A stretch of DNA of 64,000 nucleotides from an uncultured Spirochaetota bacterium (GCA_963745235.1 CAVUXE010000003.1:64001-128000); one strand, 5' to 3'. Positions 30,149 through 60,755 are shown, counted from the first letter of the stretch. Notes: generated by a model from the sequence alone, not told the origin. Translations and numbers: made by a program.

Positions 30149-30162
30149 AGCAGGCAACCGTC

Positions 30163-30196
30163 GTCGGGTCCCCGCCGGGGGACCCGACACCTTTTC
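30163..30196 (+). terminator. Strong intergenic hairpin after the SBP gene (mRNA stabiliser or partial terminator)
   Basis: GTCGGGTCCCC-GCCG-GGGGACCCGAC perfect 11-bp stem followed by ACCTTTTC. Confidence 0.7.
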
Positions 30197-30202
30197 CTTC
30201 CC

Positions 30203-33093: not shown

Positions 33094-33096
33094 GTC

Positions 33097-34073
33097 ATGG
33101 CGACACTCGTTGCGGCCATCGACCTGGTGAAGGACTTCCCCCTCCGCGGCTCCCTCTTCGACGCTTTCTCCTCCCACCGCGCGGCAGTGCACGCGGTGGA
33201 TCGGGTCAGCCTCACCTCGCCGAAGGAGAGGTGCTCGGGCTGGCCGGAGAGAGCGGCTCGGGCAAGTCCACAACGGGACGGCTGCTCCTTCGGCTCCTCG
33301 AGCCTACTTCGGGACGGGTCGAGTACCGCGGCAGGGACATCACGGGCCTGGGCACCCGGGAGCTGGCGGCGTTTCGCTCCCGGGCCCAGATCGTTTTCCA
33401 GGATCCCAACTCATCGCTTTCCCCTCGCATGAGCGTCGGACAGGCCATCACGCATCCCCTGCAGATCCACGGAATCGGGACCGCAGCGGAGCAGAAGGCC
33501 CGCGTGCTGGACCTCATGGAGAAGGTCGGGCTCTCCCCGGCCCAGTTCCTCTACCGAAAGTACCCCCACCAGCTCTCGGGCGGGCAGAGCCAGCGGGTGG
33601 TGATCGCCCGGGCGCTGGTCACGCGGCCTGACTTCCTTGTGGCGGACGAGCCCATCGCCATGGCGGACGTTTCCGTGCGCGCGCTCATCCTGCAGCTCAT
33701 GCGGCAGCTCAAGGAGGACATGGGGCTCACCTACCTGTTCATCACGCATGACCTGGCCACTGCGAAGTACCTGTGCGACAGGATCGCCGTGATGTACCTC
33801 GGACGGATCGTGGAGGTTGCCCCGCGGGACGAGCTTTTCAGCCGTCCGCACCACCCCTACACGAAAGCGCTCCTTGCCGCCGTGCCCGTCCCGGATCCCC
33901 GGGCCCGGCGCGACAAGAACCTCCCCCGAGGAGAGATCCCCAGCGCGATCGATCCGCCACCCGGCTGCCACTTCCATCCCCGCTGTCCCTTTGCCGTGGC
34001 GAAGTGCAGGGAAGCGCGGCCGCCCCTGCGGGAAATCGCCCCCGGGCACGTGTCCGCCTGCATCCTGGACTAG
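33097..34073 (+). CDS. Peptide ABC ATPase (DppF/OppF), -1 indel near 33216
   Basis: HAVDRVSL, GESGSGKST, LSGGQSQR, GCHFHPRC. Confidence 0.9.
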
Positions 34074-34150
34074 CCCACAGGCTGTCCGCGGACGGGGACG
34101 GGAACGCCTCTCCGGCTCGCCGTTCCCGGGAACCGTCAGTATCTTCTCTC

Positions 34151-36494: not shown

Positions 36495-36498
36495 GAAA

Positions 36499-37536
36499 GT
36501 GCTGCTGAAGAGGCTCTCGGAGGCTTTCGGCGTCTCGGGGCACGAAGAGCACGTGCGGTCTCTCATCCTCCAGGAAATCAGAGACCGCGTTGATGAGTGC
36601 CGGGTCGACCCGATGGGGAACCTCATCGCCCGCAGGAAAGGACCTGGCTCCTCCGCGCTGCGCGTGCTCGCTGCCGCGCACATGGATGAAGTCGGTCTCA
36701 TGGTCACGCAGATCGAGGACACGGGTCTCCTTCGATTCGCGAAAGTCGGCGGCATCGATGACCGGGTCCTTCCCGCGCGCGCGGTGCTGGTCGGGGACGG
36801 CCGCGTGCCGGGGGTCATCGGGTCCAAGCCCGTGCATCTGACGGAGAAGGCCGAGCGTGACAAGGTCATCGACTTCAAGCAGCTTGCCATCGACATCGGC
36901 GCCTCCAGCAAGGGGGAGGCGGAGAGGCTTGTCCGCCGCGGGGACTGCGCCGTGTTCGCAACCGACTTCCTGGAGCTCGCTTCCACCGGCTCGTGGCGGG
37001 CCGTGCGCGGCAAGGCCCTGGATGACCGGGTCGGGTGCGCGCTCCTGGTCGAGCTCCTGAAGGAAAAGCTGCCCTTCGAGCTCATTGCCGCCTTCACGGT
37101 GCAGGAGGAAGTGGGGCTGCGGGGGGCCCGGGTTGCCGCCTACGCGGAGGACCCTGACGCCGCGGTAGTCCTGGAGTGCACGGCCGCCAACGAAGTGCCG
37201 AGCCGAAAGGACGTGAGCCCCTCCACCCGGCTCGGAGACGGCCCGGCGGTCACGGTCATGGACAACAGCTTCATTGCGGATCCGCGGATGGTTGAGCACT
37301 TTCTCTCCGTTGCCGCCCGCAAGGGCATTCCGGTCCAGGTCAAGCAGCCCACCATCGGCGGAACCGATGCGGGAGCCATCCAGCGCGTGCGCCGCGGGGT
37401 TCCCGCAATCACCATCGCGGTGCCCGCGCGTTACATCCATTCGCCGGCGGCCATCATGAACGGGGCGGACTTCGACCACGCGATGGCCCTCGTGCGGGAG
37501 GCAATGCCGCGCCTCCCCGACGCCCTGAGAAAGTGA
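36499..37536 (+). CDS. M42 (TET) aminopeptidase, paralog 2 (GTG start after AGGAG; ORF extends to 36466)
   Basis: AAHMDE, DDR, VQEEVG, LEC, GTDA, IHS. Confidence 0.93.
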   Translation: MLLKRLSEAFGVSGHEEHVRSLILQEIRDRVDECRVDPMGNLIARRKGPGSSALRVLAAAHMDEVGLMVTQIEDTGLLRFAKVGGIDDRVLPARAVLVGDGRVPGVIGSKPVHLTEKAERDKVIDFKQLAIDIGASSKGEAERLVRRGDCAVFATDFLELASTGSWRAVRGKALDDRVGCALLVELLKEKLPFELIAAFTVQEEVGLRGARVAAYAEDPDAAVVLECTAANEVPSRKDVSPSTRLGDGPAVTVMDNSFIADPRMVEHFLSVAARKGIPVQVKQPTIGGTDAGAIQRVRRGVPAITIAVPARYIHSPAAIMNGADFDHAMALVREAMPRLPDALRK

Positions 37537-37537
37537 G

Positions 37538-38563
37538 GTGGACGTGAAGGAGATCATCCGGAAGCTGACGGAATGCTACGGGCCCTCGGGACACGAGGCG
37601 GGCGTGCGCCAGTTGATCCTGGCTGAGCTCACGGATGGAGGCGTCCTGTCGGGGCGGAAGATCGAGACGCGCGTGGACGCCATGGGCAACCTCCTGGTGC
37701 ACCAGAAGGGGAACGGCGGGGGCCGCAAGGTGATGCTTGCGGCGCACATGGATGAGATCGGGGTGGTTGTCACGCACGTCGACCAGAGAGGGTTTCTCAG
37801 GTTCGGGAGCGTTGGCGGCGTGCGCCCCCTTTCCCTCAGCGGCGGACGCGTTCGGTTCTCCGACGGGACAGTCGGGGTGATCGGCCTGGAGAAGCTGGAG
37901 GACACCGCGAAGATCCCTCCCCTGGAGAAGTACTTCATCGACGTCGGCGCGGCGAGCCGCGCGGAGTGTCTGATCAAGGTGGGTGACATCGGGTGCTTCC
38001 AGCGCCCCTGCGAGGAGCTGGGGGACAGGATGATCGCCAAGGCCATGGACGACAGGATCGGGTGCGCCGTTCTCATCCAGGCCCTGCGGGAGCTGCGCGC
38101 GTCCCCGCACGACATCTCCTTTGTTTTCACCGTGCAGGAGGAGATCGGGTTGCGCGGCGCGGTCACCTCGGGATACGGCGCCGAGCCCGATCTGGCCCTT
38201 GCCGTGGACGTCACGCTCACGGGGGACACACCCGAGTGTCCTCCCATGGCGGTGGAGCTGGGCGCCGGCCCGGCCATCAAGATCAAGGACAGCGGGATGC
38301 TCACCCACGTGGGAGTGAAGGAGTGGCTCCTGGCCACGGCAGAGCGCGCCGGCATCCCCCACCAGAGAGAGGTCCTCGTTGCCGGCACCACGGATGCTTC
38401 CGCCATCCAGACCACGCGCGCGGGAGTGCCTGCCGGCTGCGTCTCCATCCCGACGCGCTACGTGCACATGCCCTCGGAAATGGTGGACTACCGCGACGTG
38501 CGGGGCGCGGTGCAGCTCCTGGTGCAGGCGCTGTCGGGACCGATCGACATCAGGAGCCCCTGA
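37538..38563 (+). CDS. M42 (TET) aminopeptidase, paralog 3
   Basis: AAHMDE, DDR, VQEEIG, VDVT, TTDA, VHM. Confidence 0.93.
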   Translation: MDVKEIIRKLTECYGPSGHEAGVRQLILAELTDGGVLSGRKIETRVDAMGNLLVHQKGNGGGRKVMLAAHMDEIGVVVTHVDQRGFLRFGSVGGVRPLSLSGGRVRFSDGTVGVIGLEKLEDTAKIPPLEKYFIDVGAASRAECLIKVGDIGCFQRPCEELGDRMIAKAMDDRIGCAVLIQALRELRASPHDISFVFTVQEEIGLRGAVTSGYGAEPDLALAVDVTLTGDTPECPPMAVELGAGPAIKIKDSGMLTHVGVKEWLLATAERAGIPHQREVLVAGTTDASAIQTTRAGVPAGCVSIPTRYVHMPSEMVDYRDVRGAVQLLVQALSGPIDIRSP

Positions 38564-46593: not shown

Positions 46594-48129
46594 CTACGCC
46601 TGCAGGAAAGGGATGCTCACCGTGAACACGCTGCCCGCCCCAGGGGCGGACTCCACGGCAACCGTGCCCTGATGCAGCTCGGCGAGGCGCTTGACGAGGC
46701 TCAGGCCCAGGCCCGTGCCGGGGATGCTCGCGGTGAGCTCGTTCCTCGCGCGGTAGAACTCTTCGAAGACTTTCGCTTTTTCCGCGGGCGACATCCCGAT
46801 GCCGTCATCTCTCACGCTGACCGTCGCATAGATCCCCGCGCAACCCATGCTCACCTCGACGCGACCGCCCTCCCGGCCGTACTTGATGGCATTCTCCACG
46901 AGGTTGGAGAACACGATGGAGAGAGCCTCCCTGTCCGCAAGCACCAACGGGGCCGGCCCGCAGGGTGTCGGGGCATCGCAGACGGACACGGTTATCCGCT
47001 TTTCCGCGGCACGCTCGGCATAGGCTGCCGCGACGTCCTTGAGGATTGCTCCCATGTCCACAGGCGTGCGCTTCAGAGTGAAGTTCCCGGTCTGAATGGC
47101 CGTGAGGTTCAGAAGCTCATTCACCATTCCGCGCAGGGTCCGCACCCGCAGGAGTGACCTCTGGATCATGTGGCGCTCTTCCTCGGGGTTTTTCACGAGC
47201 ATTCCGCTCAGGATGAGGTTGAGCCAGCCTTCCGTGGCCGCCAGGGGGCTCTTCACCTCATGGGCAACCATGGAGACGAACATTGACTTCGCGGTCTCCA
47301 GCTTCTTGAGAGCGGTGATGTCGCTGAACACGGCCACGGCGCCGCTGGTCACCCCGCCCGGCTCGATCACGGGGCTTGCGTTCACCATGTATGTTTCCTT
47401 GCCGAGGGGGATCTCCCGGGAAAGGATCATGGGGCCGCCGGGGGAATCGATGATCAGCTGGAGGATCTCCTGGACGTCCGTATTGTGGATCTCCGCGAGG
47501 GGGAACGGGATCTCGTTTCTCGCGCACTGCGACAGGATGCGGGCCGCGGCGTCGTTTCGCAGCACGACCAGCTTTTCCATGTTGACTACCAGGATCCCGT
47601 CTGTCATGCAGGTGATGATGGTGTTGCTCTTGGAGCGCTCGGAGGCGAGCTCCAGGAGGCGCTTTTCCCTTTCCGCCAGGAGGCGCTTGGCGCTCAGCGT
47701 CAGGGCCCTTTTCTCCAGGCCGTTCTTGATTGCGAGGAGAAGCTCGTCCGCGGTGAACGGCTTGGGGATGAAGCTGTATGCGCCCTGGCGCGTCCCCTCC
47801 ACCGCTGTGTCGATAGTGGCATGTGCCGTGATGATGATGCAGACGATATCCTCATCACGCGCACGCACCTCGCGCATCAGCTCCAGGCCCGACATTCGCG
47901 GCATCTGCAGGTCTACCAGGAGGACGCTGAAAGGTCCTCTTTCCAGGAACTGCTCCAGCCCCGCCTTGCCGTCGCCCGCGGTGATGACGTCGTACCCTTC
48001 GGAGGAAAGGATCTTCCGGCAGCCCTCGCGGACCCCGAGCTCGTCATCCACCACCAGGATGCGCTCGGAGGCTTCTGCGCCCACGGGTTTTGCGCTCACC
48101 GGTTCTCCGCTCACTGGTTCCCCAGTCAC
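46594..48129 (-). CDS. Receiver-PAS-histidine kinase
   Basis: ILVVDDE..VDLQMP..KPF; AHEVKSPL; NLVENAIKY; GTGLGL. Confidence 0.92.
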   Translation of the reverse strand: MTGEPVSGEPVSAKPVGAEASERILVVDDELGVREGCRKILSSEGYDVITAGDGKAGLEQFLERGPFSVLLVDLQMPRMSGLELMREVRARDEDIVCIIITAHATIDTAVEGTRQGAYSFIPKPFTADELLLAIKNGLEKRALTLSAKRLLAEREKRLLELASERSKSNTIITCMTDGILVVNMEKLVVLRNDAAARILSQCARNEIPFPLAEIHNTDVQEILQLIIDSPGGPMILSREIPLGKETYMVNASPVIEPGGVTSGAVAVFSDITALKKLETAKSMFVSMVAHEVKSPLAATEGWLNLILSGMLVKNPEEERHMIQRSLLRVRTLRGMVNELLNLTAIQTGNFTLKRTPVDMGAILKDVAAAYAERAAEKRITVSVCDAPTPCGPAPLVLADREALSIVFSNLVENAIKYGREGGRVEVSMGCAGIYATVSVRDDGIGMSPAEKAKVFEEFYRARNELTASIPGTGLGLSLVKRLAELHQGTVAVESAPGAGSVFTVSIPFLQA

Positions 48130-48575
48130 CGCAGGAGCTCTTCAGCCTTTGCCAGCAGCGCCTGCGGGGAGACCGGCTTGTCGAAGAACGCATCCGCATG
48201 CATGGCCGCCAGGTCCTCCGCGGTCCGCGGATGAAAGTCGAAGCCCTTCTGGCTGGAGATGGCGGAGACAATGATGATCGGGGTGCCCGCGAAGCGCGGG
48301 TCGGTCTTCACCGCGCGCGCAAACGAGAAGCCGGAATCAAGGGCTTTCATCATCACGTCGCAGACAACAAGCGTCCGCCGGGCTCCCGTCTGCCCGGCGC
48401 CGAGGGCCGCCAGCGCCGACTGCGGATCGCAGTGGCAGGCCACCTGGTAGCCCCGTGCTTCGAAGATCCTCCGCTCCAGCTCAAGGAAGTCGGTGTCATC
48501 GTCCAGGAGAAGGATCAGCGCGCCTTGCGGCGCGGCGCCCCCTGTTCCGGCGCCTTGCTGGCCGGCCGGGTGCAT
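48126..48575 (-). CDS. Stand-alone response regulator receiver
   Basis: LLDDD, VCDVMM, VSA, DKP. Confidence 0.88.
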   Translation of the reverse strand: MHPAGQQGAGTGGAAPQGALILLLDDDTDFLELERRIFEARGYQVACHCDPQSALAALGAGQTGARRTLVVCDVMMKALDSGFSFARAVKTDPRFAGTPIIIVSAISSQKGFDFHPRTAEDLAAMHADAFFDKPVSPQALLAKAEELLR

Positions 48576-48967
48576 CAGGGCTCCCTTCCAAGGGCCTTGT
48601 TGACCATGGCAAGGAGCAGCTGGGGGTCCACCGGCTTTTCCAGCAGTGCATCAACGGGGAGCCACGTGTGATCCGGTTCCAGTCGGAACGGGATGGAATC
48701 ATTCACCGAGGTGATCATGACGAGGGGAATGGTGCGCGTGATCTCGGAGTTCCGAAGCTCCCGAGAGACGTCGAAGCCGTCGTTGGGGCTTTCCATCACC
48801 ATGTCCAGGATGATGAGGTCCGGACGTTTCCTCTCCACCTCGTCCAGGCACTGCTTTCCATTGAAGGCCACCCGCACCGTGTAGCCGTTTTCCGTCAGGA
48901 GGGCCCGGTTCATCTCCACGAAATCCGCGTCATCGTCCACAAGAAGCACCGTCTTATCCCACCCCAT
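48575..48967 (-). CDS. Stand-alone response regulator receiver
   Basis: LVDDD, ILDMVM, ITS, EKP; GGAGGAG RBS. Confidence 0.9.
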   Translation of the reverse strand: MGWDKTVLLVDDDADFVEMNRALLTENGYTVRVAFNGKQCLDEVERKRPDLIILDMVMESPNDGFDVSRELRNSEITRTIPLVMITSVNDSIPFRLEPDHTWLPVDALLEKPVDPQLLLAMVNKALGREP

Positions 48968-50966
48968 GGATCTCCTCCCTGGTCCTGTCGCCAACGGGGA
49001 TGCGCACGTGGAAGGTTGTACCCTTTCCCACCTCGCTGTCCACCGTGATGTCTCCCGCATGCATCTTCACGACCCCGTACACGATGGACAGCCCCATGCC
49101 GCTGCCTTTGCCCAGCTGCTTCGTCGTGTAGAAGGGAGTGAAGATGTCCTTGAGCGTTTCCTGCGGCATCCCGCTGCCCGTGTCCCTCACGCGGAGCACG
49201 GCGAGGTCACCGGATTCCGAGAGGCCGACGCTGACCACCACCTCGCCGCCCGCCTCCCCGTTGATCGCGTCGATGCCGTTCTGCACGAGGTTCACGAGCA
49301 TCTGGCGGATCTGCTCTCCGTCCGCGCTGACCCGGGGCATTGCCTCCTGGACCTCTGCCCGCACCCGCGTCCCGCTGTCGGCAAGTTTCATGTTCATGGA
49401 ATCAGCGATGTCATGGGCAATGAGCCCCAGGTCAGTTGGGGTCTTCACCACCCGCGACTGTCGGGCGAAATCCAGGAGGCCGCGCATGATGGACCTGCAC
49501 CGGTTTGCCTCGTTCACGATCATCTGGATGTCCTCCGACTCCGCATCCCCCTCGCGGTGGGCCTTCAGGAGCATGTGGGAGTACAGGAGAATGGTGGAAA
49601 GCGGGTTGTTGATCTCGTGGGCCACCCCCGCGGAGATCTGGCCCATGGAAGCGAGGCGCTCCGTCTGGACCAGCCTGTCCTGCGTGGCCTGGTGGGACTT
49701 CTGGAGCACCGCGAGGGTCATCTCCAGCTCTTCCACCAGGTAGGGAAGGCACATGCTCACCTCGGCAATCCCCTGGCACACGGCAATGGCCTTCTCCCTG
49801 CAGGACGGGTAGCCGCATGACCCGCAATCCAGCTGGTCCTCGGGCCCGAACTTGCGCATGAGGCGCAGCGTGGCTTCAATGTCCTGCTCGGCCGGCTGCG
49901 GCAGGACCACCGCGTCCTCCGCGAACTCCCTGCGCAGGTCGATGTCGGCAAACTCCGCAATTGTCTCCCCCATGTCGCGGCTGGGCTGGCTCTCGTTCCG
50001 CGCATGGATGTAGTCCGTGAGCATCTCCCTGCGCGCCACGGCGCCCATGGTCCCCGGCATCCGGGGCCCGTTCAGACAGCCTTCGCAGAAAAGGACGTCG
50101 AACATGCGCGCCTTGCTCCTGCCTTCGGCCAGCTCCCTCAGCGCGGAGATGACCCGGTCCTTCCCCTCGGTGACGACGACGGTGTTCTGCAGGATGTCAG
50201 CGTCGAATCCGGCGGCGCGAAGAAGGCCTCCGGAGAGCGGGATGGACCGACCGAGGTACGACGCCGGACCGTCGAAGTCCGACGGCGGGAACGACGTCGG
50301 GTCCACGGCTGCCGTCCGCCACAGGGCGGAAAGCTCCTCATAGGTCAGCACCGCGTCCACGGTCCCTTGAACGAACCTGTCCCGTATTTCCGCCTTCTTG
50401 GCGATACAGGGACCGACGAATACCACCCGCACTCCCGCCCCGAACCTCCGCTTGATTGCGCGCGCGGTCGCGATCATGGGGGAGACGATGGGAGCCAGCG
50501 CGCCGTGCAGGGAAGGCAGGTATTTCTGGACGTAGGACACGATGGCGGGGCACGGGGTGCTCACCACGGGCTGGCTTGCCCTGATGGCCTGGCGAGCCAG
50601 GATGGCGTACTCCTGGCTGATCAGCTCCGCCCCGAATGCCACTTCCCAGACCTGGGAGACTCCCAGGGCTCGCACCGCGGACACGATCCTGCCCGGCTCG
50701 ATTCCCGCGAATGCCACCGGGAACGAAGGGGCGAGACAGGCAAACACCCGCTCGCCCGCTTCCAGCATCCTGGCAACCGCCATGGAGGAGTCTTCGATCC
50801 TTTTCGCCTTCTGCGTGCAGACTTTCACGCAGTTGCCGCAGGCGATGCATTGCTCCGCGATCACCGTGGCCTGCCCGGAGATGACCTTGATTGCCTTTGC
50901 CGGGCATTCCCGCACGCAGGTGTAGCAGCGGCGGCACTTCTCGGGAATTGTCGAGACTATCCCCAT
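48954..50966 (-). CDS. Sensory [FeFe]-hydrogenase (group C1-like) fused to a histidine kinase
   Basis: 2x[4Fe-4S]; H-domain motifs STPCPA, GPCIAKKAE, LFCEGCLNG; DCGSCGYPSC FeS domain; AHEINNPL and HATPase. Confidence 0.9.
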   Translation of the reverse strand: MGIVSTIPEKCRRCYTCVRECPAKAIKVISGQATVIAEQCIACGNCVKVCTQKAKRIEDSSMAVARMLEAGERVFACLAPSFPVAFAGIEPGRIVSAVRALGVSQVWEVAFGAELISQEYAILARQAIRASQPVVSTPCPAIVSYVQKYLPSLHGALAPIVSPMIATARAIKRRFGAGVRVVFVGPCIAKKAEIRDRFVQGTVDAVLTYEELSALWRTAAVDPTSFPPSDFDGPASYLGRSIPLSGGLLRAAGFDADILQNTVVVTEGKDRVISALRELAEGRSKARMFDVLFCEGCLNGPRMPGTMGAVARREMLTDYIHARNESQPSRDMGETIAEFADIDLRREFAEDAVVLPQPAEQDIEATLRLMRKFGPEDQLDCGSCGYPSCREKAIAVCQGIAEVSMCLPYLVEELEMTLAVLQKSHQATQDRLVQTERLASMGQISAGVAHEINNPLSTILLYSHMLLKAHREGDAESEDIQMIVNEANRCRSIMRGLLDFARQSRVVKTPTDLGLIAHDIADSMNMKLADSGTRVRAEVQEAMPRVSADGEQIRQMLVNLVQNGIDAINGEAGGEVVVSVGLSESGDLAVLRVRDTGSGMPQETLKDIFTPFYTTKQLGKGSGMGLSIVYGVVKMHAGDITVDSEVGKGTTFHVRIPVGDRTREEIHGVG

Positions 50967-51059: not shown

Positions 51060-52830
51060 CTACACCCGCTCCCTCGCGACGTACTTCGTGTGGAGCAGAT
51101 GGTGGGATTTCTCCCCGAGGGGCTTGTGAAGGTATTGATCGTAGATTGCCTTCACCTCGGGGTTGTTGTGAGACTTGCGGATGGGTTTCCCCTCGTCCTC
51201 CTTGTAGATGGCGGCGATCCGGGCTTTGCGCACGTCATCCGTAGTGAGCCGCGGCTGACCGCCGCCGCCGATGCACCCACCCGGGCACGTCATGACCTCG
51301 ATGAAGTGATATTGCTCGCCGGAGTGAATCCGCTCGATGAGCTTCCGGGCGTTCCCCAGGCCGTGCGCCACGCCGACACGCACCGTCACGCCCTCCAGGA
51401 AGGACCATTCGGGCACGGTTCCTTCGATCTTCACTGCGGCTTCCTTGATCCCCTGCAGCCCGGCGATGGGAGCAATGTGCAGGTTCTCGAAAGGCAGGGT
51501 CCTTCCGGTCACGATCTCGTACACGGTTCGCAGGGCAGCTTCCATCACGCCGCCGGTGTTGGCGAAGATGTCCGCCGCTCCCGACGACGCGCCCAGGATG
51601 CTGTCCATGGCGCCATCCGGCAGGCTCGTGAAATCTATCCCGGCCTGCTTGATCATACGCCCCAGCTCACGGGTGGTGAGGACCACGTCAACGTCACGCG
51701 CGCCGCTCGCGCACATCTCGGGCCTCTGGGACTCGTACTTCTTGGCCGTGCAGGGCATGATCGAGACCACGAACATGTCTTCGGGTTTCTTCCCGATCTT
51801 CTCTGCAAAGTAGGTCTTTGCCACGGCGCCGAACATCTGCTGCGGAGACTTGCACGTCGAGATGTTCGGCAGGATGTCGGGCCAGAAGTGCTCCGCGTAC
51901 CTGATCCACCCGGGCGAGCAGCTGGTGAACATGGGAAGCGCCACCTGCTTCTTGTCCACGAGCGCTCCCTTGAGGCGCGTCAGCAGCTCCGTTCCTTCCT
52001 CGATAATGGTCAGGTCCGCGGTGAAGTTCGTGTCGAACACCCGGTCGAACCCCATCTGCCGGAGCGCGGTGACCATCTTGCCCGTGACGAGCGTTCCCGG
52101 CGCATAGCCGAAGCACTCACCCAGGGCGGCCCGGATGGCGGGAGCGGTCTGAACCACCACGGTCTTCTTCGGGTCGTCCAATGCCTCCCACACGCTGGCA
52201 ATCTCGTCGCGCTCGCTGATTGCGCCCACGGGGCACACGGCGGCGCACTGTCCGCATTGCACGCAGACCACCTCGGAGAGCGGCTGCGCGAACGCCGGGG
52301 CGATCATGGCCTTGAAGCCCCTCCCCTGCGGGAAGATGGCCCCCACTCCCTGCGTCTCCCCGCACACCGTGACGCAGCGCCGGCAGGACACGCACTTGGC
52401 GGTGTCACGCACGAGCGCCGGAGTGCTCAGCGTCGGTCATGCGCCTGCTCTTCGCTCCGGCGAAGGTGACCTGGCGGATGCCCAGGTCACTCGCAATGGC
52501 CTGCAGCTCGCAGTCGACGTTGCGGTCGCAGGTCTGGCAGTCCCCTTCGTGGTCGGAGAGGATGAGCTCAACCACGGTTCGCCGCGCGTTCCTGGCCCGG
52601 GGAGAGTTGGTTTGCACCTCCATTCCCTCCGCCGCCATGGTCACGCAGGAGGGCATCAAGGTCTTTGCGCCTTTCACCTCCACCAGGCACACGCGGCAGC
52701 TCCCGATGGCCTGCACGCTCTTGAGGTAGCACAGGGACGGGATCTTGATCCCCGCCAGCCGGGCGGCTTCCAGCAGGTTCGTCCCGGCCGGGACCTGGAT
52801 CTTCCTGTTGTCGATGGTCAAAGCTGGCAT
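51060..52830 (-). CDS. hydA: Group A [FeFe]-hydrogenase catalytic subunit (HydA/HndD), +1 indel near 52430
   Basis: [2Fe-2S], His-ligated and 2x[4Fe-4S] motifs; FTSCSPGW, MPCTAKKYE, EVMTCPGGCIGGGGQP. Confidence 0.95.
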
Positions 52831-52831
52831 G

Positions 52832-55800
52832 TCAGTTGGCTCCTTCTTCTCGATAGTCGCACCGCAGGCACCGCTTGCTCTCCGCGAGCGCGGCCCCGCA
52901 CGGCAGCGTGAGCTCCACCTCCGCAAAGGTCCCGCTGCGCTTCGCAATCGGGATGAGCTTCACCGCCGGCCTGGCGCCCGCCACGGGATCCGCGTCCGGA
53001 TCGAACTGCGCGTCAGACACGCGGCAGGTCCGCCACGGCGCATGACTCTCTCCCGTCAGGTACGCGTCGATTCCGGCAGCCGCTCTCTCCCCCGCGGCGA
53101 TTGCCTCCACGACGGAGGAAGGGCCGCTGACGGCGTCACCCGCCGGCGAACACCCAGTCCACCGAGGTCTGTCCCGTGACCGGGTCAGCCCACAGGTACT
53201 CCCGCTCGTTCTGTTTCACCGCGACCCCGTCGAAGAGCGCGGAAGGCACGAGCTTCTGCCCGATGGCGGCGATGACCATGTCTGCCTCCAGGCCGGAAGT
53301 CGTTCTCGCCCTTTGCCACGGGTTTCCTGCGGCCCGTCCGGTCGAAATCACCAAGGTCCATTGTGCGGAACTTTACGGCCGTGAGCTTTTCACCCTTCCT
53401 CACAAGCTCCAGCGGAGCCGCAAGGAACTCGAAGCGCACGCCTTCCCTTTCCGCCTCTTCCACCTCTTCCGCGAAAGCCGGCATCTCCGCCCGCGTGCGT
53501 CGGTAAACCACCGTGGCGCTCTGTGCCCCCAACCGAAGGGCCGTGCGCGCCGCATCCACCGCCGCGTTCCCTCCCCCGATGACCACGACGTTCCTGCCGA
53601 CCCTGGCTTTCGAGGTGAGGTTGTATTCCTTGAGGAACCCCAGCGCGTCCACGACTCCCTTCCCGTCTTCTCCGGCCATGCCGAGGCTCATTCCCTGGGG
53701 AGCGCCGACTCCGACGAACACGGCTTCGTATCCCTGCTCCTTGAGGCCGGCCAGCGTGAAGTCGGTCCCGAGCTTCTTCTTCGTCCTGATGGTCACGCCC
53801 ATGTCGGCAATCATGTCGATCTCCCGGTCCAGGATGTCGCGCGGGAGGCGATACGCAGGGATGGCCTGCCGCAGCATGCCTCCTGGTTTGCTCTCAGCCT
53901 CGAACACCGTGGGCTTGTAGCCCAGGCGCGCCAGGAAGTACGCGCAGGAAAGGCCCGCGGGGCCGGCGCCGACAACCGCGATCTTCCGCTCGCCGTTCTT
54001 TCCGTCCGCAATGGGATCCGGGAGCTGGGGAGTCTTCTCCTGGTCCGACAGGAACCTCTTGACCGCTCGAACGGACAGGGGCTCGTCCAGCGTGGACCGC
54101 CGGCACTTGCCCTCGCAGGGGTGGAAACAGACCCGGGCGCAGACCCCGACGAACGGGTTTCTCTCCCGGTGCAGCTTGAGGGCCTCGTTGTAGCGCTTTT
54201 CGCCGGTGAGGCTCACGAAGCCCGGGACGTCCACGCCCGCGGGACACGCGTTCTGGCAGGGCGCCCGCACCAGCTCCGCGCACACCCCCGCGCGGCACTT
54301 GTGGTCCCTGATGTGCTCCACGAACTCATCGCGGAAGTAGCGGATGTTGGAGAGAACCGGGTTCGGGGCGCCCTGCCCCAGGGCGCAGAGGGCCGTGTCC
54401 TGGATCGTCTTTCCCAGCTCGATGAGCCGCTCGATGTCCCCTTCCTCACCCTTCCCGGCGCAGATGCGGTCCAGGATCTCCAGCATCCTTCGCGTGCCGA
54501 CCCGGCAGGGCGTGCACTTGCCGCAGGACTCGTCCTGCGTGAACTCCAGGAAGAACCGGGCCATGTCCACCATGCAGGAGTCCTCGTCCATGACGATCAG
54601 GCCGCCGGACCCCATGATGGCGCCCAGCTGCACGATGGACTCGTAGTCGACGGGAACGTTCAGGTGCTCCTTGGGGATGCGATCCGCCGGACGGTCCGCC
54701 CATCTGCGCCGCCTTGAACTTCTTCCCGTTGGGGATCCCGCCGCCAATGTCGTAGATGATCTCCCCCAGCGGCACGCCCATGTTCACCTCGACAAGGCCG
54801 ACGTTGTTCACCTTGCCGGTGAGCGCGAAGATCTTCGTCCCGGGGCTCTTCTCGGTCCCGACGGACCGGAACCAGGCCGCTCCGTTGGTGATGATGAGGG
54901 GAATGTTCGCCAGCGTCTCCACGTTGTTGAGCACCGACGGCTTCTCCCAGAGGCCCGCGTCGGACGGGAACGGCGGCCGCGGCCGCGGCTCTCCCCGCTT
55001 TCCTTCGATGGACCGCATGAGGGCCGTCTCTTCGCCGCAGACGAATGCGCCGGAACCCCTGGCGATGTCGATGTCGAAGTCAAAGCCGGTGCCAAGGATG
55101 TCCGTGCCCAGGAGGCCACGCTCACGGCACTGGTTGATGGCAATGGTGAGCCGCTCGATTGCAAGCGGGTATTCCGCCCTGCAGTAGATGTATCCCTGGT
55201 GCGCGCCGATTGCCCGGGCGCCGATGATCATGCCTTCGATGACCGCGTGCGGATCGCTTTCCAGCACGCTCCTGTCCATGAACGCGCCCGGGTCTCCCTC
55301 GTCCGCGTTGCACAGGAAGTACTTGATCTCCGATTTCGAACGGGATGCGAACTCCCACTTGGTGCCCGTGGGGAAGCCCGCACCGCCGCGGCCGCGAAGC
55401 CCCGACTTCTTGACCTCTTCCGTGATGCCCTGGGGAGTCATCTCGAGGAGCGCCTTTGCCGTCGCGATATAGCCCCCCCGCCCGATGTACTCCTCGATGC
55501 TCATGGCGGAGATCCTGCCCTTGTTGTGAAGCACGCGCAGGTTCTGCCGGGCAAAGAACGGGATATCGGCGTAGTGGGGGATCACTGCCTGCGTGATGGG
55601 ATGGCGGAACATGAGCCTTTCCACCGGTCTCCCTTTCAGCACGTGCTCCTCAACGAGCTCCGCCATGTCCTCCGGCGTGAGCTTCTGATAGAAGAATCCA
55701 CCCGGGTACACCACCATGATGGGGCCGCACGCGCAAAACCCGTTGCAGCCTGTCTGGACCACCGCCACCTCTCCCGTGGCGCGCGCATCATGCATGTCTT

Positions 55801-55930
55801 CAATGGAAACGGCATCCGTGAGCTCGTGCGCCGCCAGCTCCTTGACGAGCGCGTCGCGCACCCTTTGCGCTCCCGAGGAGACGCAGCCCGTGCCGAAGCA
55901 CATGAGGAGATGCATCCGTGTCGTCTTCAT
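52832..55930 (-). CDS. hydB: NuoF-like HydB/HndC subunit fused to a GltD/NfnB-like FAD/NADPH oxidoreductase; three indels (near 54681, 53292, 53140)
   Basis: GRGGAGFP, NADEGDPGAFMDR, FVCGEET, GGPSG, ESCGKCTPCR; then CQNACP, CARVCFHPCEGKC, GAGPAG, GGGNAA..YRR, FAGGD, CLRCD. Confidence 0.9.
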
Positions 55931-56349
55931 GCTCTTGCCCTCCCCTGCTTCTTCTCAGCGTCCGAGGGCTCGCTGCCCACGTACACGACATAGGCACCCG
56001 CCGACTTGCCCGCCAGGGTCTGATGGAAGACTTCCCTGACGGTCGCGCCGTCCAGGTGGCCGTACAGCACGGGCTGAGCGCCGAGGGTCTCCACTGTCAT
56101 CACCGGCTCGTGCTCGCACGCCCCGATGCATCCCGAGGTGGTGAGCCTGATGTCGGTGCGGCCGCTCTTCTCCAGCTCTTCGGCCAGCGCGTTCACCACG
56201 TCCCTGGCTCCGCTTGCAATACCGCAGGTGCCCATATGCACGGTGAAGCACATCCTGTAGCCGTCCTCTCGCAGGGCCGCTTTCTTCTGCGCCTCGTCAC
56301 GAATGGCCAGGATGTCCTGGAGACTCCGTATCTTTTTTGTCTCAGCCAT
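55927..56349 (-). CDS. Thioredoxin-like [2Fe-2S] ferredoxin subunit (HndB/HydD)
   Basis: MGTCGIASGA, SGCIGACEHEP. Confidence 0.88.
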   Translation of the reverse strand: MAETKKIRSLQDILAIRDEAQKKAALREDGYRMCFTVHMGTCGIASGARDVVNALAEELEKSGRTDIRLTTSGCIGACEHEPVMTVETLGAQPVLYGHLDGATVREVFHQTLAGKSAGAYVVYVGSEPSDAEKKQGRARA

Positions 56350-56984: not shown

Positions 56985-57530
56985 CTATCTGGTCACGTCC
57001 AGGGCGTCGAGCCCTTCGGCAATTTTCTCCCGCATGCGCCGCGCCAGGCCGATCTCCCCCCGCTGGCCCGCCGGCAGCGAACGGGCTATGTCCGTGGTGC
57101 TCACGCGCCATTCCCGGTCAGCCACCCGCAGCAGGCTGCGCAGCTCCACGCCCGGGTTCGTGCACACCACGGATGCAAGAGTCCCGGCGAGATCTCCCAG
57201 CGGGCTGCGGTCCACGCTGGAAAGAGGGATGCTCGCCTGGACGCTGAGCCCACCCAGCGGGGACCTGCCCAGCTGGAAGGTCCCACCGGCCTGCTCGGCG
57301 CGAAACTTGAAGAGGCTCAGGCCCAGCCCTGTTGTCTTTCCCTCCTTGGTGGAGAAGAAAGGGTCAGCGGCGACGTCTCCGGAGACGCTCAGGCCCGGAC
57401 CATCGTCTTCCACGCGGATTGTCATGATGTCCCGGGACGGCTCTTCCTCCAGGGACACCGTGATGACCGCGGCGCCGGCACGGATGGAGTTCTCCAGCAG
57501 GTCGAGGATGTGCAGGGATATCTCACGCAA
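56985..57530 (-). CDS. Hydrogenase-associated HATPase_c (kinase-like) protein lacking an H-box
   Basis: TTG start; REISLHILDLLENSIRAGA, DDGPG, DPFFST, GLGL, DRSPLGD. Confidence 0.85.
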   Translation of the reverse strand: MREISLHILDLLENSIRAGAAVITVSLEEEPSRDIMTIRVEDDGPGLSVSGDVAADPFFSTKEGKTTGLGLSLFKFRAEQAGGTFQLGRSPLGGLSVQASIPLSSVDRSPLGDLAGTLASVVCTNPGVELRSLLRVADREWRVSTTDIARSLPAGQRGEIGLARRMREKIAEGLDALDVTR

Positions 57531-58284
57531 AGGAGCACCTCCTCCCATCCGCGCCCCGGAGGGCCAGGGCAAGCTCCGCAAAGGCGGGCTCGCGAACGTC
57601 CAGCACGGTAAAGCCTGACCCGATGTCGCTGAGGAAGTGCCCGTCCGAGGAGCACAGGAGCGGCAGCCCGTGCTCCTGCCACGCCGAGGCCGTGCCCCGC
57701 GCCGCTCCCGCCGCCGACACCTCGAGGCCGTCGAACGGCACGTCGGGGGGAAGGAAGCCGAGCTGGCCGGGCACGCTGAAGCTGCGCCTGTCCATGTGCG
57801 CGGCCACGGCAAGCCCGCCATGTCTATGAATCAGCGTCACGGCGTCGCACAGGCTGAAGAGGCTCGCGGCCGCGAGCATCTTCGGCTCGATCCCCGTGAT
57901 GTTTCCGTCCGCATCCACGAGCTCCTGCTCGCAGCTGCGGCTGCCGGACGCCGGGGCGCGGGACAACAACGGCCGCCAGGCGGGAAGCCCCTCCCGCACC
58001 TCCTCTGATGCCGCGAAAGCGGCTGCTTCGTCCGGGAAGAAGCCCAGGACGTGGACTTCCTCCCGGGTGGTGATCTCCATCCCGGGAATGACACGGGGGC
58101 CGCCGAGTGACTCGGAGGCCTTCCTGACCGCAAGGACATTCCCGGCGCTGTTGTGGTCGCACACCGCTATCATCGCCATCCCCTTTTCCATTGCTTCACG
58201 GACGATGGCGCGGGGCCGCATCTGCCGCGACGCGCAGGGAGAAAGGACCGTGTGGATGTGCAGGTCCGCGGCGCATCGGATCAT
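57523..58284 (-). CDS. PHP-domain phosphoesterase
   Basis: DLHIHT.LSPC, CDHN, EITTREEVH, AAH, SSDGH. Confidence 0.9.
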   Translation of the reverse strand: MIRCAADLHIHTVLSPCASRQMRPRAIVREAMEKGMAMIAVCDHNSAGNVLAVRKASESLGGPRVIPGMEITTREEVHVLGFFPDEAAAFAASEEVREGLPAWRPLLSRAPASGSRSCEQELVDADGNITGIEPKMLAAASLFSLCDAVTLIHRHGGLAVAAHMDRRSFSVPGQLGFLPPDVPFDGLEVSAAGAARGTASAWQEHGLPLLCSSDGHFLSDIGSGFTVLDVREPAFAELALALRGADGRRCSFA

Positions 58285-58637
58285 CCCTTCGTTTTTCCTC
58301 GAAGCCCCAGCGCGTAGAGCTTCCCCGCCGTGTCGAAGGTCGACTCCCGGGTGGCGAACAGGCTGATTTTCTCCGCGGCCGCCCTGGCGCGCACGTCCGC
58401 GGGAGGCCTCATTCCCGAGGCAAAAACAACCGCCGCAAGGCCGGCATGGACGGCTACCGCCACGACATTCATGTGAACCTGGATGGTGATGAGCAATCCG
58501 CCGGCCGGAGCGTTGGCAAGCACGTCGCTGAGGAGGTCGGAGGCGTGCGCCGCATCCACGTTTCCCGCTTCGTCCATGGGAAGCTCGGTGGTGAGGTTCT
58601 CCAGGCCGAGTGCGTCCGCGATCTGTCTCAGCTTCAT
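58281..58637 (-). CDS. DRTGG/HPr-kinase-N-like small protein
   Basis: MKL.QI...L.L, SDLLSDVLA, NVVAVA. Confidence 0.82.
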   Translation of the reverse strand: MKLRQIADALGLENLTTELPMDEAGNVDAAHASDLLSDVLANAPAGGLLITIQVHMNVVAVAVHAGLAAVVFASGMRPPADVRARAAAEKISLFATRESTFDTAGKLYALGLRGKTKG

Positions 58638-60199
58638 CTGTGCTTCTCCGTGAATGGGCAATCTGCCCGGTCTGCCCGGCCCATGACGACATCCTCCGCG
58701 AATGCCGCGCAGGAGGGAGCGCCGCAGGAGCCGCAGTCCCTGCCGGGCAGGGAGCGCGTTTCCCCGTCTATGCGGGAGAGCTTCCGAATTGCCTCACCCA
58801 TGGCGGCATCCAGCCTCAGGCCCGGACGCTGCGCGAAAGGCATTGCCCGCGCGGCGACCCCCGCAGGCACGCCCGGCGTCGCAGGAACGGTCTGCCACAT
58901 GCCGGCGAGCTCCGGCTGCGAGCCAAGGAGAGGGGATGCGGAGCATCCTCCCGCGCAGAAGCGAAGGTCCAGGACGGCCGCGCGGCCCAGCGCTCCGGTC
59001 TCAGCGCGGGAAAGGACCCTCATCACGCTGCGGGCACCGCTTGCAGCCAGCTCGCCGGGCTGCAGGGACGCGAGGGGGGGAACGGTGACACCCAGGGGGC
59101 GACGGACGGCAGGCTGGACGTCCAGAAGAGGCCGGATGGCTGCCTTCAAAGCAGCCGGAGAAACGACTGTCAGCCTTTCCGTGAGGCTGGACCGGGCGCA
59201 CTCCCCGTATTGTCCCGGGCATGCGGCCACAAGGAATACTGGACGCAAAGGGAACTCCTCGCAGGCTGTTTCGGCTGGTGAATGAAAGACGCAAAGATTC
59301 GGAATGAGGGAGGGGAACCTGCTTTCGATCACCGCCGCAACAGGCGGACATAGCGGAGGGATTCGAGGGAGAGGGAGCTCCCGTGCCGCGGCTTCGCGCC
59401 GGGCCTCCGCCAGAAGCGACTCCTCCCACTCCTCGAGCAGCCTCATCTCGGTGAACCCGAGCTCGCGCAGCGCGGAGAGAACCTGCTCCGGGGGGCGGAT
59501 GCCGAAAAGGGCAGCGAGCAGCCCGCTGGGTGCAAGGAGAAGTGCGTCCGCCGGGACACCCGGCAGGGGCGCGCGCGGGATGTCAAAGGCCCTGTCAGGG
59601 CACTCCTCGATGCACGCAGTGCAGCCGATGCACAGGTGCTCCAGGAGAACGGGGCGCCGGTCCCGGGCGCGAATTGCTCCCACGGGGCAGGCAAAGATGC
59701 ATCTCCGGCAGCCTCTGCAGCGATCCGTGTCCACCACCAGGGGTGTTGACGAAACGGGAGCCTGTGCCGGAGAGGGCGAGCCCGTCCCGAAGAGAATCGT
59801 GGACCTGATGCGCGTGCCTCGGCCCACCCTGGTCTCGATCTGGAAATGGTCGCTGTTTCGACGGATATTCGGAAGGCCGAGGCCGGCTCCGAACCCCATC
59901 TGCCGGGCCTGCTCGGAGGCCGTGGACCAGCCCTCCTGCAAGGCAAGCTCGACATCGGGTATCCCCGGGCCCTCGTCAGCAACCTCCAGGTCGAGCTTCG
60001 TCTCATCCACGCGGGCCCACAGGGTGCCGGTGCGGGCGTGGATGACCACGTTCATCTCCGCTTCGTAGGCGGCAATCATTGCGCGTCGCAGGACGGAGGC
60101 ATCCACGCCGAGCTTCGAAAGCTGCTCCTTGAGCTTCCGCGCCGCAAGGCCGGCGGAATCGAAGTCCCCTCCCGCAATTCGAAAGCTCAGCGTGATCAT
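58634..60199 (-). CDS. RsbT-like Ser/Thr kinase fused to 2x[4Fe-4S], a degenerate [FeFe]-hydrogenase-like domain and a C-terminal FeS domain
   Basis: YEAEMNVVIH, DEGPGI, GWST, GFGAGLGLPN; CRGCRRC..CP and CIGCTAC..CP; PLCPP, AACPGQ, FCAGGC; LPGRDCGSCGAPSC. Confidence 0.85.
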   Translation of the reverse strand: MITLSFRIAGGDFDSAGLAARKLKEQLSKLGVDASVLRRAMIAAYEAEMNVVIHARTGTLWARVDETKLDLEVADEGPGIPDVELALQEGWSTASEQARQMGFGAGLGLPNIRRNSDHFQIETRVGRGTRIRSTILFGTGSPSPAQAPVSSTPLVVDTDRCRGCRRCIFACPVGAIRARDRRPVLLEHLCIGCTACIEECPDRAFDIPRAPLPGVPADALLLAPSGLLAALFGIRPPEQVLSALRELGFTEMRLLEEWEESLLAEARREAAARELPLPRIPPLCPPVAAVIESRFPSLIPNLCVFHSPAETACEEFPLRPVFLVAACPGQYGECARSSLTERLTVVSPAALKAAIRPLLDVQPAVRRPLGVTVPPLASLQPGELAASGARSVMRVLSRAETGALGRAAVLDLRFCAGGCSASPLLGSQPELAGMWQTVPATPGVPAGVAARAMPFAQRPGLRLDAAMGEAIRKLSRIDGETRSLPGRDCGSCGAPSCAAFAEDVVMGRADRADCPFTEKHR

Positions 60200-60549
60200 T
60201 GCGGCGGCACCTTCTCCGCGCCCAGGCACTGCGCGGCGCGCGCGCAAAGGTTTTCACGGCTTGCCCGCGATACCAGGAGCGCGGCGCCGGCTTCGCGGGC
60301 GAGTGCCACGACCCCCGCGTCAGGTTCCTTTCCATCAGAAAGACAGATCCCCGGAACGTCCATCAGCTCCGCCACCCGGATAAGCTGACCATTGGCAAGC
60401 GAGGTGATAAGAAGTGTGCCGGGACCGGCGTTTGCGATGAGGTCGCTCATTGTCGCTCCGCCGTAGACGCGGAGGACATCCGGGTTTGCCGGTCCGCTCG
60501 GGACGACCAGGCGGGCTTCGATGGCGCTAGCAAGCTGTTCGACCTTCAT
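60196..60549 (-). CDS. DRTGG-like small protein, first gene of the hydrogenase operon
   Basis: MKVEQL, TMSDLIA, LLITSL.N.QLIRVAEL, GKEP. Confidence 0.82.
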   Translation of the reverse strand: MKVEQLASAIEARLVVPSGPANPDVLRVYGGATMSDLIANAGPGTLLITSLANGQLIRVAELMDVPGICLSDGKEPDAGVVALAREAGAALLVSRASRENLCARAAQCLGAEKVPPQ

Positions 60550-60588
60550 GAAGCCTTGATCCAATTCGACAGGATCGCTTCGATATAT

Positions 60589-60604
60589 TGCAAGCGTTGT
60601 GCCA
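60589..60604 (-). promoter_or_regulatory. sigma54 -24/-12 promoter of the hydrogenase operon
   Basis: TGGCAC-AACGC-TTGCA on the minus strand, matching TGGCAC-N5-TTGCW exactly, 40 nt upstream of ATG 60549. Confidence 0.85.
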
Positions 60605-60755
60605 ATCGTGAATTCAGTCTCGATCAAGTTGGCGGGCTTCGAGATCGAAATATCACAATGGGATCAAGTCTTTCCGCTGTAATGAGATGTGATCGTCAGG
60701 CTTCAGGGGGAATTCCGGCATTCAAAAAGGGCTAAACGTCCTCAGGCATCGTTTG

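Follow-up and report, generated by a model that had tools for sequence, protein, structure and literature searches.

A hydrogenase HydB fused to an NfnA-like NADPH module in an uncultured Spirochaetota bacterium, with a possible coupling of H2 to NAD(H) as well as NADP(H)

Background

What can a bifurcating-type hydrogenase couple when the end that normally serves ferredoxin has been exchanged for an NADPH port? This question is raised by hydB, a gene found at 52832..55930 on the minus strand of a 64,000-nucleotide stretch of DNA (GCA_963745235.1 CAVUXE010000003.1:64001-128000; hereafter "the window", meaning this whole stretch) from the metagenome-assembled genome (MAG) of an uncultured Spirochaetota bacterium. 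The gene product is almost certainly HydB/BfuB, the beta subunit of a Bfu-family [FeFe]-hydrogenase with the four subunits HydC, BfuD, HydB and HydA. Judged from its sequence, it is with near certainty a chimera, in which a hydrogenase-type BfuB core, up to and including the hinge, continues into an NADPH module of the Nfn-Bfu type. With the same near certainty, the ferredoxin-like B3/B4 domain is predicted to have been replaced by this GltD-like module, which contains two [4Fe-4S] clusters, a flavin adenine dinucleotide (FAD) domain and an NADPH site.

In anaerobes, the balance of H2, NADH and ferredoxin is governed by Bfu-type enzymes, for which structures have lately revealed the mechanism. 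As described by Xiao et al. (2025, PMC12018979), the bifurcation site is made up of flavin mononucleotide (FMN), a [4Fe-4S] cluster and the [2Fe-2S] cluster of HydC; NAD(H) reacts at the FMN, and a domain of HydC swings to carry the low-potential electron to B3/B4, the clusters at which ferredoxin binds. A variant that keeps the whole bifurcating core and has its ferredoxin end swapped for an NADPH port would thus be a natural experiment on whether that core can run its low-potential branch with a pyridine nucleotide. If the coupling considered below is true, H2 would be linked directly to the anabolic NADPH pool in Spirochaetota of peat and soil and in many other phyla.

Domain architecture of HydB

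Residues 1-555 of the intact, 1031-amino acid (aa) orthologue align over their full length, up to the hinge, with solved bifurcating B subunits: NiFe-HydB of A. mobile (E-value 3.5e-232) and HydB of A. woodii (1.2e-221), T. kivui (1.5e-206) and T. maritima (1.7e-186). An N-terminal, thioredoxin-like [2Fe-2S] domain with four Cys residues (Pfam 2Fe-2S_thioredx, residues 4-95) is followed by the FMN/NADH domain and by a [4Fe-4S] cluster between the Rossmann fold and the helix bundle (Pfam NADH_4Fe-4S, full profile). The motifs GAFMD, KIFAL and GGPSG, which a first-pass annotation of the window had picked out together with an H..C..C site, are all found in the translation. In the account of Losey et al. 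(2020, PMC7311640) these correspond to the three criteria for bifurcating beta subunits, namely an Ala/Glu plus a Met near the NADH site (GAFMD), a Phe near FMN (that of KIFAL) and GGPSG. The hinge, which in the structures is a site of one His and three Cys that binds Zn or a [2Fe-2S] cluster (PMC12018979), is likewise present as one His, a Cys-x4-Cys and an upstream Cys, and it aligns with the HydB structures.

Beyond the hinge, the likeness to hydrogenase B subunits ends. The alignments to HydB of A. mobile, A. woodii and T. kivui stop at residue 541-542 of 597-599, or 573 of 630, that is, about 57 residues before the chain ends, and no CX2CX2CX3CP motif of the ferredoxin-like (B3/B4) domain is present after the hinge. 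Thus, the first-pass claim that the usual C-terminal 2x[4Fe-4S] domain is absent holds for the ferredoxin-like domain itself; this domain is replaced rather than merely lost, since the module brings eight invariant Cys of its own. The run into a GltD-like FAD domain with a GGGN...YRR site is in frame as had been claimed, with Fer4_20 and Pyr_redox_2 following NADH_4Fe-4S, and the junction does lie inside one open reading frame (ORF), 53185..54747.

The last 487 residues best match the NADPH modules of Nfn-Bfu A subunits: NfnA of C. saccharolyticus (Csac; 3.1e-115), NfnA of T. sibiricus (Tsi; 1.4e-109) and StnC of S. ovata (4.7e-109). Lower scores are obtained with T. maritima NfnB (2.9e-85), P. 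furiosus NfnI (5.4e-77) and GltD (6.5e-58). The strings of the FAD GxGxxG and of the YRR site are common to the module, Csac NfnA, Tsi NfnA and T. maritima NfnB. In NfnI-like proteins, the two Arg of YRR are said to hold the 2'-phosphate of NADP(H) (PMC8965080); by sequence, then, the site is of the NADPH type, and this specificity is a prediction.

The eight module Cys, for two [4Fe-4S] clusters, stand in the NfnA/StnC-type order, in which the last pair lies beyond the FAD domain. This last pair is the CLRCD noted in the first-pass annotation as the end of the protein. It is no stray ending: the alignment to Csac NfnA extends through the C-terminal tail, reaching NfnA residue 567, and module query residues 447-480 align with chain residues 11-43 of T. 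maritima NfnB. On these alignments, it corresponds to the pair of Cys with which the Fe-S domain of NfnL/GltD begins, moved to the C-terminus as in NfnA. The placement of the NfnA/StnC module, inside the A subunit and flanked by a [2Fe-2S] domain and HydA-like Fe-S domains, is not seen here; the module forms instead the C-terminal half of the B subunit.

Like HydABC and NiFe-HydABCSL (A. woodii 7Q4V, T. kivui 8A6T, T. maritima 7P5H, A. mobile 7T2R), the protein has the N-terminal [2Fe-2S], FMN site, [4Fe-4S] and hinge, with HydC and HydA as partners; unlike them, it has no counterpart to their last ~57 residues, a ferredoxin-like domain with two CX2CX2CX3CP motifs, and carries a module of ~480 residues for NADPH and FAD instead. 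With NfnABC/StnABC (C. saccharolyticus 9BOV, T. sibiricus 9N5U, S. ovata 8OH5) it shares the module, which corresponds to about residues 101-567 of NfnA/StnC and has the same order of parts, a Cys pair after the FAD domain and YRR. However, in NfnABC/StnABC the module resides in the A subunit on a mid-potential path, and NfnB has a ferredoxin-like domain, whereas here the module follows the hinge of the B subunit, and a true hydrogenase forms the A subunit. The large subunit of NfnSL and GltD (4YLF/4YRY, 5JCA, 2VDC) belong to the same fold family, with two [4Fe-4S] clusters, FAD and an NADPH site, but in them the Cys-pair segment is N-terminal rather than C-terminal, and the operon in the window contains no NfnS or GltB partner. 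Finally, the archaeal hybrid [FeFe]/[NiFe] hydrogenases of Greening et al. (Cell 2024, PMC11216029) are described as having a NuoF-like HydB with a domain like the small chain of glutamate synthase, modelled on 7MFM chain I. This likeness is one of description; those proteins are archaeal, belong to a complex with both [FeFe] and [NiFe] modules, and are represented by AlphaFold models only.

The comparison with Bfu types, Stn and NfnABC that had been proposed thus gives a HydB-type protein up to the hinge, a module closest to NfnA/StnC, and the layout of "sub-type I" BfuABC. In sub-type I, as defined by Zheng & Huang (mSystems 2024, PMC11406978), DPD_II with two [4Fe-4S] clusters, together with a FAD/NAD(P) domain at the C-terminus, takes the place of B3/B4 in BfuB; BfuA belongs to type M3a, BfuD occurs in some members, and Spirochaetota are among the holder phyla. 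The same paper names distant homologues in two cultured bacteria, Syntrophus gentianae DSM 8423 and Desulfotignum balticum DSM 7044, stresses a possible second bifurcating FAD, and says that the mechanism needs more study. In the window, Fer4_20 and Pyr_redox_2 lie after NADH_4Fe-4S, hydC lies upstream and an H-cluster hydA downstream. On this evidence, HydB is almost certainly another, ordinary member of sub-type I, structurally the same and part of a group A3 [FeFe]-hydrogenase. By the HydDB rule, the neighbour of a group A2 HydA has a GltD/GltA domain but not NuoF, and NuoF denotes group A3; since the neighbour of HydA here has both NuoF and GltD-like parts, the assignment is A3 and not A2. 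Both the domain layout and the idea of coupling are therefore already published (Zheng & Huang 2024) and are not new. What is added here to the sub-type I account, and is absent from the parts of PMC11406978 drawn on for this comparison, is the kinship of the module to NfnA, the C-terminal Cys pair, and clusters that carry the same fused subunit and no hydrogenase.

Conservation and distribution

A homologue search over at most 8,000 candidates lists at least 120 clusters, all with the same Pfam set; 118 relatives of 980-1,100 aa were aligned, and the other two (814 and 832 aa) were left out. Among the 118, the four Cys of the N-terminal [2Fe-2S] and the four of the [4Fe-4S] are kept in 113-118. 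The hinge His, Cys-x4-Cys and upstream Cys are invariant (118/118), as are all eight module Cys, including the C-terminal pair (118/118). Also invariant are the bifurcation-type Ala, Met and Phe, the Gly/Pro/Ser/Gly/Gly of GGPSGG, and the arginines of YRR; the FMN/NADH loops and FAD glycines are conserved.

The closest loci lie in MAGs labelled uncultured Spirochaetota or Spirochaetia. At 59-69% identity, members are found in MAGs that bear the labels Planctomycetota, Riflebacteria, Victivallales, Verrucomicrobiota, Thermoleophilia, Chitinivibrionales, Fibrobacterota, Raymondbacteria and "Deltaproteobacteria". Of 29 related loci, 23 have a HydA with the H-cluster domain 3' of the fused gene and the remaining six end before that place; a BfuD-like gene occupies the same position as in the window in 20 of 29 related hydrogenase-linked loci (tblastn).

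The genome that contains the window also encodes a canonical HydC-HydB-HydA cluster with a HydB of 617 aa (G000:C37, L015), and an NfnABC/Stn-like cluster (G000:C15, L011, L013) made up of a NuoE-like gene, a 595-aa NfnB and an NfnA-like gene with the GltD module. Both the canonical HydB and the NfnB carry ferredoxin-like motifs. The fused enzyme is therefore an extra and not a substitute.

Frame breaks in the assembled gene

The first-pass annotation treated 52832..55930 as a single continuous gene and held that the fusion is not an indel artefact. The latter is correct for the junction; the gene itself is not continuous as assembled. Three-frame translation and the DNA reveal three +1 breaks, which divide hydB into four pieces of 416, 461, 51 and 101 codons (Table 1), and a fourth break divides hydA. 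Every break consists of one extra base relative to orthologues. These breaks are most likely errors of assembly, as judged from comparison with public sequences, because contigs omit the extra bases, orthologues are intact, and genes elsewhere in the window (aroA, pspA and SBP_bac_5) are also split. Consequently, the organism probably makes the full 1031-aa HydB.

The evidence from contigs comes from four public runs (X1-X4) of four independent peat or soil studies, whose Logan contigs were aligned to positions 52300-56000 and are ~99% identical to the window. Five insertion/deletion rows are listed over this interval, and all five lie at the four breaks. One base is omitted at 52431 in X1, X3 and X4 (X2 has no cover); at 53141 in X1 or 53145 in X2 and X4, for break 3 (X3 has no cover); at 53291 in all four runs; and at 54679 in X3 (X1 and X2 have no cover). 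A 1,913-base contig of X1 differs from the window over 52300-53653 by 14 letters and exactly three gaps, which lie at the breaks. Contig joints and loose ends with high summed depth at conserved NuoF stretches (54408-54655 and 55152-55399) are read as homologues from other organisms. In the nearest relatives, the hydB ORF is intact, with 1031 aa in MAG G015 and 1046 aa in G007, and hydA is intact in G015. Piece 1 is 94% and piece 2 is 95% identical to the G015 orthologue, the latter with no indels. At least 10 of 30 relatives searched have the fused gene in one open frame of at least 1,017 codons; in the others it is split or cut by contig ends.

Should the breaks be real, the hyd operon would be a true pseudogene in this strain, inactivated by four frameshifts in hydB and hydA. 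Some observations do count against assembly error. All four breaks fall within 2.3 kb and are thus locally dense; of 20 G015 ORFs with matches in 29 kb of synteny, none but hydB and hydA is spread over several frames. The omission at break 1 is seen in X3 only, and a depth-2 contig of X4 does not have it. In addition, the contigs that do not have the extra bases differ by ~1% from the window and hence come from other strains, which leaves a slight chance of a strain-specific pseudogene. Such a pseudogene is nevertheless highly improbable: the pieces of hydB and hydA show no other decay, each being 82-95% identical to intact orthologues with no in-frame stops; the breaks consist in every case of a single extra base; elsewhere in the window, the essential aroA and two more genes are split likewise; and similar splits occur in this and neighbouring genes of related MAGs of few contigs. 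The hyd breaks and those in the other split genes add up to eight or more over the 64 kb, a sign that the assembly is error-prone.

Programmed +1 frameshifting was also considered and rejected, as the four sites have no motif in common, the orthologues are uninterrupted, and unrelated genes are split as well. A third multi-frame flag in the synteny comparison (a G015 ORF against 33027-34067 of the window) was a short secondary high-scoring segment pair, with no break.

Among related MAGs, hydA and the sensor kinase of G007 (L019/L020, G007:C16) are each in two frames. At three further loci (L043, L045 and L088), the open frame of the fused gene is only 607-773 codons long, though both halves are present.

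Proposed electron path and its alternatives

Given a HydB-type core, an NADPH-type FAD module, and NfnABC/Stn as nearest relatives, it is a reasonable reading that the complex couples H2 to NAD(H) plus NADP(H). This idea was also put forward in the first-pass annotation. Its structural premise, a bifurcation-type core joined to an NADPH-type FAD module, stands; the YRR arginines, the eight module Cys and the bifurcation-type residues recur in all 118 aligned relatives, and the modules of the nearest solved relatives, NfnABC and Stn, are NADPH-oxidising. The coupling itself is reasonable but is read from sequence.

The path outlined here follows the Bfu route of Xiao et al. 2025 (PMC12018979); the core is kept up to the hinge. 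H2 would be split at the H-cluster of HydA, and the electrons would pass to the FMN/[4Fe-4S]/[2Fe-2S] "flavobicluster" of HydB and HydC. In one branch NAD+ would be reduced at the FMN. In the other, in place of the swing of HydC to B3/B4 and ferredoxin, electrons would travel by way of the two [4Fe-4S] clusters of the module to FAD and then to NADP+. The net reaction would be 2 H2 + NAD+ + NADP+ <-> NADH + NADPH + 2 H+, which at about the low pressures of H2 found in peat and soil could run in either direction, with NADP(H) serving as the lower-potential partner in ferredoxin's stead. That H2 is coupled in this manner, NADP(H) taking over the branch otherwise used for ferredoxin, is tentatively favoured, its chances being put slightly under even.

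Four considerations weigh against this coupling. First, a search of PMC and bioRxiv full text found no enzymology of a HydB-GltD fusion, and no activity, cofactor or structure data for any member. Second, under physiological conditions NADP+/NADPH lies only ~100 mV below NAD+/NADH (Table 1 of PMC9304861), and there is therefore a weak energetic reason for bifurcation between them. Third, the same module in NfnABC feeds a mid-potential path through NfnA and not the low-potential branch. Fourth, although a simple NAD(P)-linked enzyme would have no use for the bifurcation-type core that is kept here, this core could just as well serve ferredoxin that docks on the new clusters.

This last consideration leads to an alternative in which ferredoxin would still be a substrate, docking at the two [4Fe-4S] clusters of the module in the role of B3/B4, a role that falls to the distal cluster of NfnL in NfnSL, while FAD and NADP(H) would provide a fourth port or a second bifurcation site; the functions of HydABC and Nfn would then be united in one complex for H2, NAD(H), NADP(H) and ferredoxin. 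In NfnSL-type relatives the two [4Fe-4S] clusters of the homologous subunit lead to ferredoxin, and the module matches this family. The conservation of the whole bifurcating core and hinge also agrees with continued use of ferredoxin, as do the second bifurcating FAD centre postulated by Zheng & Huang (PMC11406978) and the "likely ferredoxin" acceptor that Greening et al. (2024, PMC11216029) place at the glutamate-synthase-like domain of archaeal HydB. However, the surface is altered by a module of 480 residues at the place of B3/B4, according to PMC9304861 bifurcation in Nfn-Bfu does not take place at the FAD of the NfnA-type module, and a canonical HydABC and an NfnABC-like cluster are already encoded separately in the genome. 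Retention of ferredoxin is thus regarded as unlikely, though it is to be taken seriously.

Another alternative is a hydrogenase that does not bifurcate. Such an enzyme would have two independent nucleotide ports with no obligatory coupling, NAD+ reacting at the FMN and NADP+ at the FAD, or either nucleotide driving H2 formation at low H2. At standard potentials either nucleotide can be reduced exergonically by H2 (Table 1 of PMC9304861), and HydB of S. wolfei and S. aciditrophicus, which have no B3/B4, are non-bifurcating (Losey 2020, PMC7311640). GltD/NfnL-like subunits are plain NADP(H) ports elsewhere, for example in the NADP-dependent Fdh3 of T. onnurineus. Yet the protein has all three Losey signatures of the bifurcating type, the N-terminal [2Fe-2S] and the hinge His, which according to PMC7311640 and PMC12018979 the non-bifurcating enzymes do not have, and the invariance of the bifurcating-type features across 118 relatives argues that they are used. 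Independent ports are accordingly judged distinctly improbable.

Fused subunits with other partners

In a quick tree, the fused NuoF-GltD genes form two clades: one is linked to hydrogenase (26 rows, SH-aLRT 99), and the second, with 38 rows (SH-aLRT 96), has no hydrogenase link. Support is weak (SH-aLRT 82-93, quick search) along the backbone that connects these two clades and the unfused NfnA-like rows. In 30 of 34 loci of the sister clade, the fused gene is followed by two conserved genes, the first for a 225-aa [2Fe-2S]/2x[4Fe-4S] protein and the second for a ~525-aa protein with the FMN domain of glutamate synthase (PF01645), 72-88% identical across phyla; the Pfam check of these neighbours covered four loci.

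The sister cluster thus contains four genes (loci within L050-L099, for example L063:3474-9932), for a NuoE-like protein, the fused NuoF-GltD subunit (~1060 aa), the 225-aa Fe-S protein and the ~525-aa GltB-like FMN protein. Its MAG labels include Acidobacteriota, Ignavibacteria, Bacteroidota, Gemmatimonadota, Zixibacteria, Latescibacterota and others. We know of no description of this cluster, for which no dedicated literature search was made. A third kind of partner is seen at L061:4483-11174 and L079:4021-10450, where the fused gene is followed by one for a formate-dehydrogenase-like A subunit with molybdopterin domains.

These neighbours bear on a further alternative, in which the GltD-like module is an adaptor to another partner, such as a GltB-like FMN protein or glutamate synthase, and the complex is an H2- or NADH-driven reductase of some other substrate. 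The short Fe-S protein and PF01645 protein at 30 of 34 sister loci fit this idea, and the HydDB group A2 concept ties hydrogenases to glutamate synthase. On the other hand, a PF01645 protein occurs in none of the 55 window ORFs scanned and in 0 of 26 hydrogenase-linked loci, the hydrogenase-linked modules form a clade of their own, and the NADPH site is intact and invariant. An adaptor role here is therefore very unlikely.

Because the fused gene stands beside HydA, GltB-like or formate-dehydrogenase-like genes, the subunit looks like a module used with several catalytic partners. A bolder proposal is that it is a portable core for NAD(H) plus NADP(H): a bifurcation unit of the Bfu type that would have NADP(H) instead of ferredoxin as its low-potential partner and would serve at least three catalytic partners ([FeFe]-hydrogenase, a formate-dehydrogenase-like protein and a GltB-like FMN protein). 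If this were true, NADH and NADPH would be confurcated to drive H2 formation or another reduction without ferredoxin. Such NAD(H)/NADP(H) confurcation would, as far as is known, be a first for a Bfu enzyme, and the proposal is at present a doubtful one.

The hyd operon and its neighbourhood

The gene order on the minus strand is hydC-bfuD-hydB-hydA, with the H-cluster-type (catalytic) HydA last (Table 1). HydC is 79% identical to its G015 orthologue and is in one frame. The three H-cluster motifs TSCSPGW, MPCTAKK and CPGGCIGGGGQ are all seen in the hydA ORF 51060..52412, and HydG and HydF are both present in the genome with scores above the curated cut-offs.

Table 1. Positions of the hyd genes, their sub-features, the frame breaks and other split genes in the window. 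Coordinates of sub-features within hydB piece 2 were derived by hand from indel-free colinearity with the 1031-aa orthologue.
Feature	Position	Strand	Evidence
hydC/bfuC, NuoE-like, thioredoxin-like [2Fe-2S] (C1 cluster), 209 aa	56342..56971	-	Pfam 2Fe-2S_thioredx, E 5.2e-49, residues 34-175
bfuD/HndB-like small thioredoxin-like [2Fe-2S] protein, 140 aa	55927..56349	-	Pfam 2Fe-2S_thioredx, E 2e-05
hydB, full extent, four pieces	52832..55930	-	between bfuD and hydA
hydB piece 1, residues 1-416: N-terminal [2Fe-2S], FMN/NADH domain, SLBB; GGPSGG at end	54683..55930	-	Pfam 2Fe-2S_thioredx, Complex1_51K (E 3.9e-48), SLBB
Frame break 1 (hydB), one extra base	54679..54682	-	orthologue reads through uninterrupted
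hydB piece 2, residues 418-878: [4Fe-4S] helix bundle to NADPH site	53296..54678	-	Pfam NADH_4Fe-4S (E 1.9e-35), Fer4_20 = DPD domain II (E 1.2e-17), Pyr_redox_2 (E 2e-21)
His/Cys hinge (piece 2)	~54282-54315	-	colinearity with orthologue
NuoF-to-GltD junction	~54273	-	colinearity with orthologue
Six of eight module Cys (piece 2)	54105-54258	-	colinearity with orthologue
FAD GxGxxG	~53953-53970	-	colinearity with orthologue
NADPH site GGGN...YRR	~53497-53577	-	colinearity with orthologue
Frame break 2 (hydB), one extra base	53291..53295	-	DNA and contig comparison
hydB piece 3, residues 880-930, part of FAD/NAD(P) fold	53139..53291	-	Pfam Pyr_redox_2 profile positions 226-274, E 4.4e-4 (alone: below curated cut-off); tblastn to orthologues
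Frame break 3 (hydB), one extra base, yields in-frame TGA	53138..53141	-	DNA and contig comparison
hydB piece 4, residues 931-1031 and stop: end of FAD domain, C-terminal tail	52832..53137	-	alignment to Csac NfnA, T. maritima NfnB
Invariant C-terminal Cys pair (CLRCD) (piece 4)	~52859-52872	-	alignment
hydA N-terminal piece: [2Fe-2S] and His-ligated [4Fe-4S] domains	52432..52830	-	Pfam Fer2_4 (E 7.4e-21), NADH-G_4Fe-4S_3 (E 1.1e-16)
Frame break 4 (hydA), one extra base	52431	-	orthologue hydA intact
hydA C-terminal piece: 2x[4Fe-4S], H-cluster domain, small-subunit domain	51060..52430	-	Pfam Fe_hyd_lg_C (E 4.6e-97), Fe_hyd_SSU (E 1.2e-25)
Sensory hydrogenase-like histidine kinase (Fer4, Fe_hyd_lg_C, FeS, HisKA, HATPase_c)	48954..50966	-	Pfam; directly downstream of hydA
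SBP_bac_5 (ABC-transporter binding protein), two frames: profile positions 1-234, 233-366	28574-30444	+	Pfam
aroA (EPSP synthase), three frames: profile positions 2-103, 107-264, 297-417	25627-27293	-	Pfam
PspA, two frames: profile positions 1-125, 127-218	20188-20881	+	Pfam
FapA_N/FapA, probably split in two	3470-6428	-	Pfam

The sensor kinase is followed, at 46594-49060 (minus strand), by two single-domain response regulators and a hybrid receiver-kinase (Pfam). Together, the kinase and the response regulators are probably an H2-sensing control circuit and the regulatory partner of the hyd operon; group C hydrogenases are described as adjoining A3 clusters (Zheng & Huang 2024, PMC11406978). 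Upstream of hydC, the region 57523-60627 (minus strand) contains genes for a PHP-domain protein, two small ORFs without a Pfam match, and a 537-aa protein. The latter has an N-terminal HATPase-like domain, a 4Fe-4S dicluster, a weak match to Fe_hyd_lg_C and a C-terminal FeS domain, and it resembles the "group C1" relatives with HATPase_C in the account of Zheng & Huang. Farther away, at 35415-38560 (plus strand), three tandem paralogues of M42 glutamyl aminopeptidase adjoin a gene for trans-2-enoyl-CoA reductase (33773-35323).

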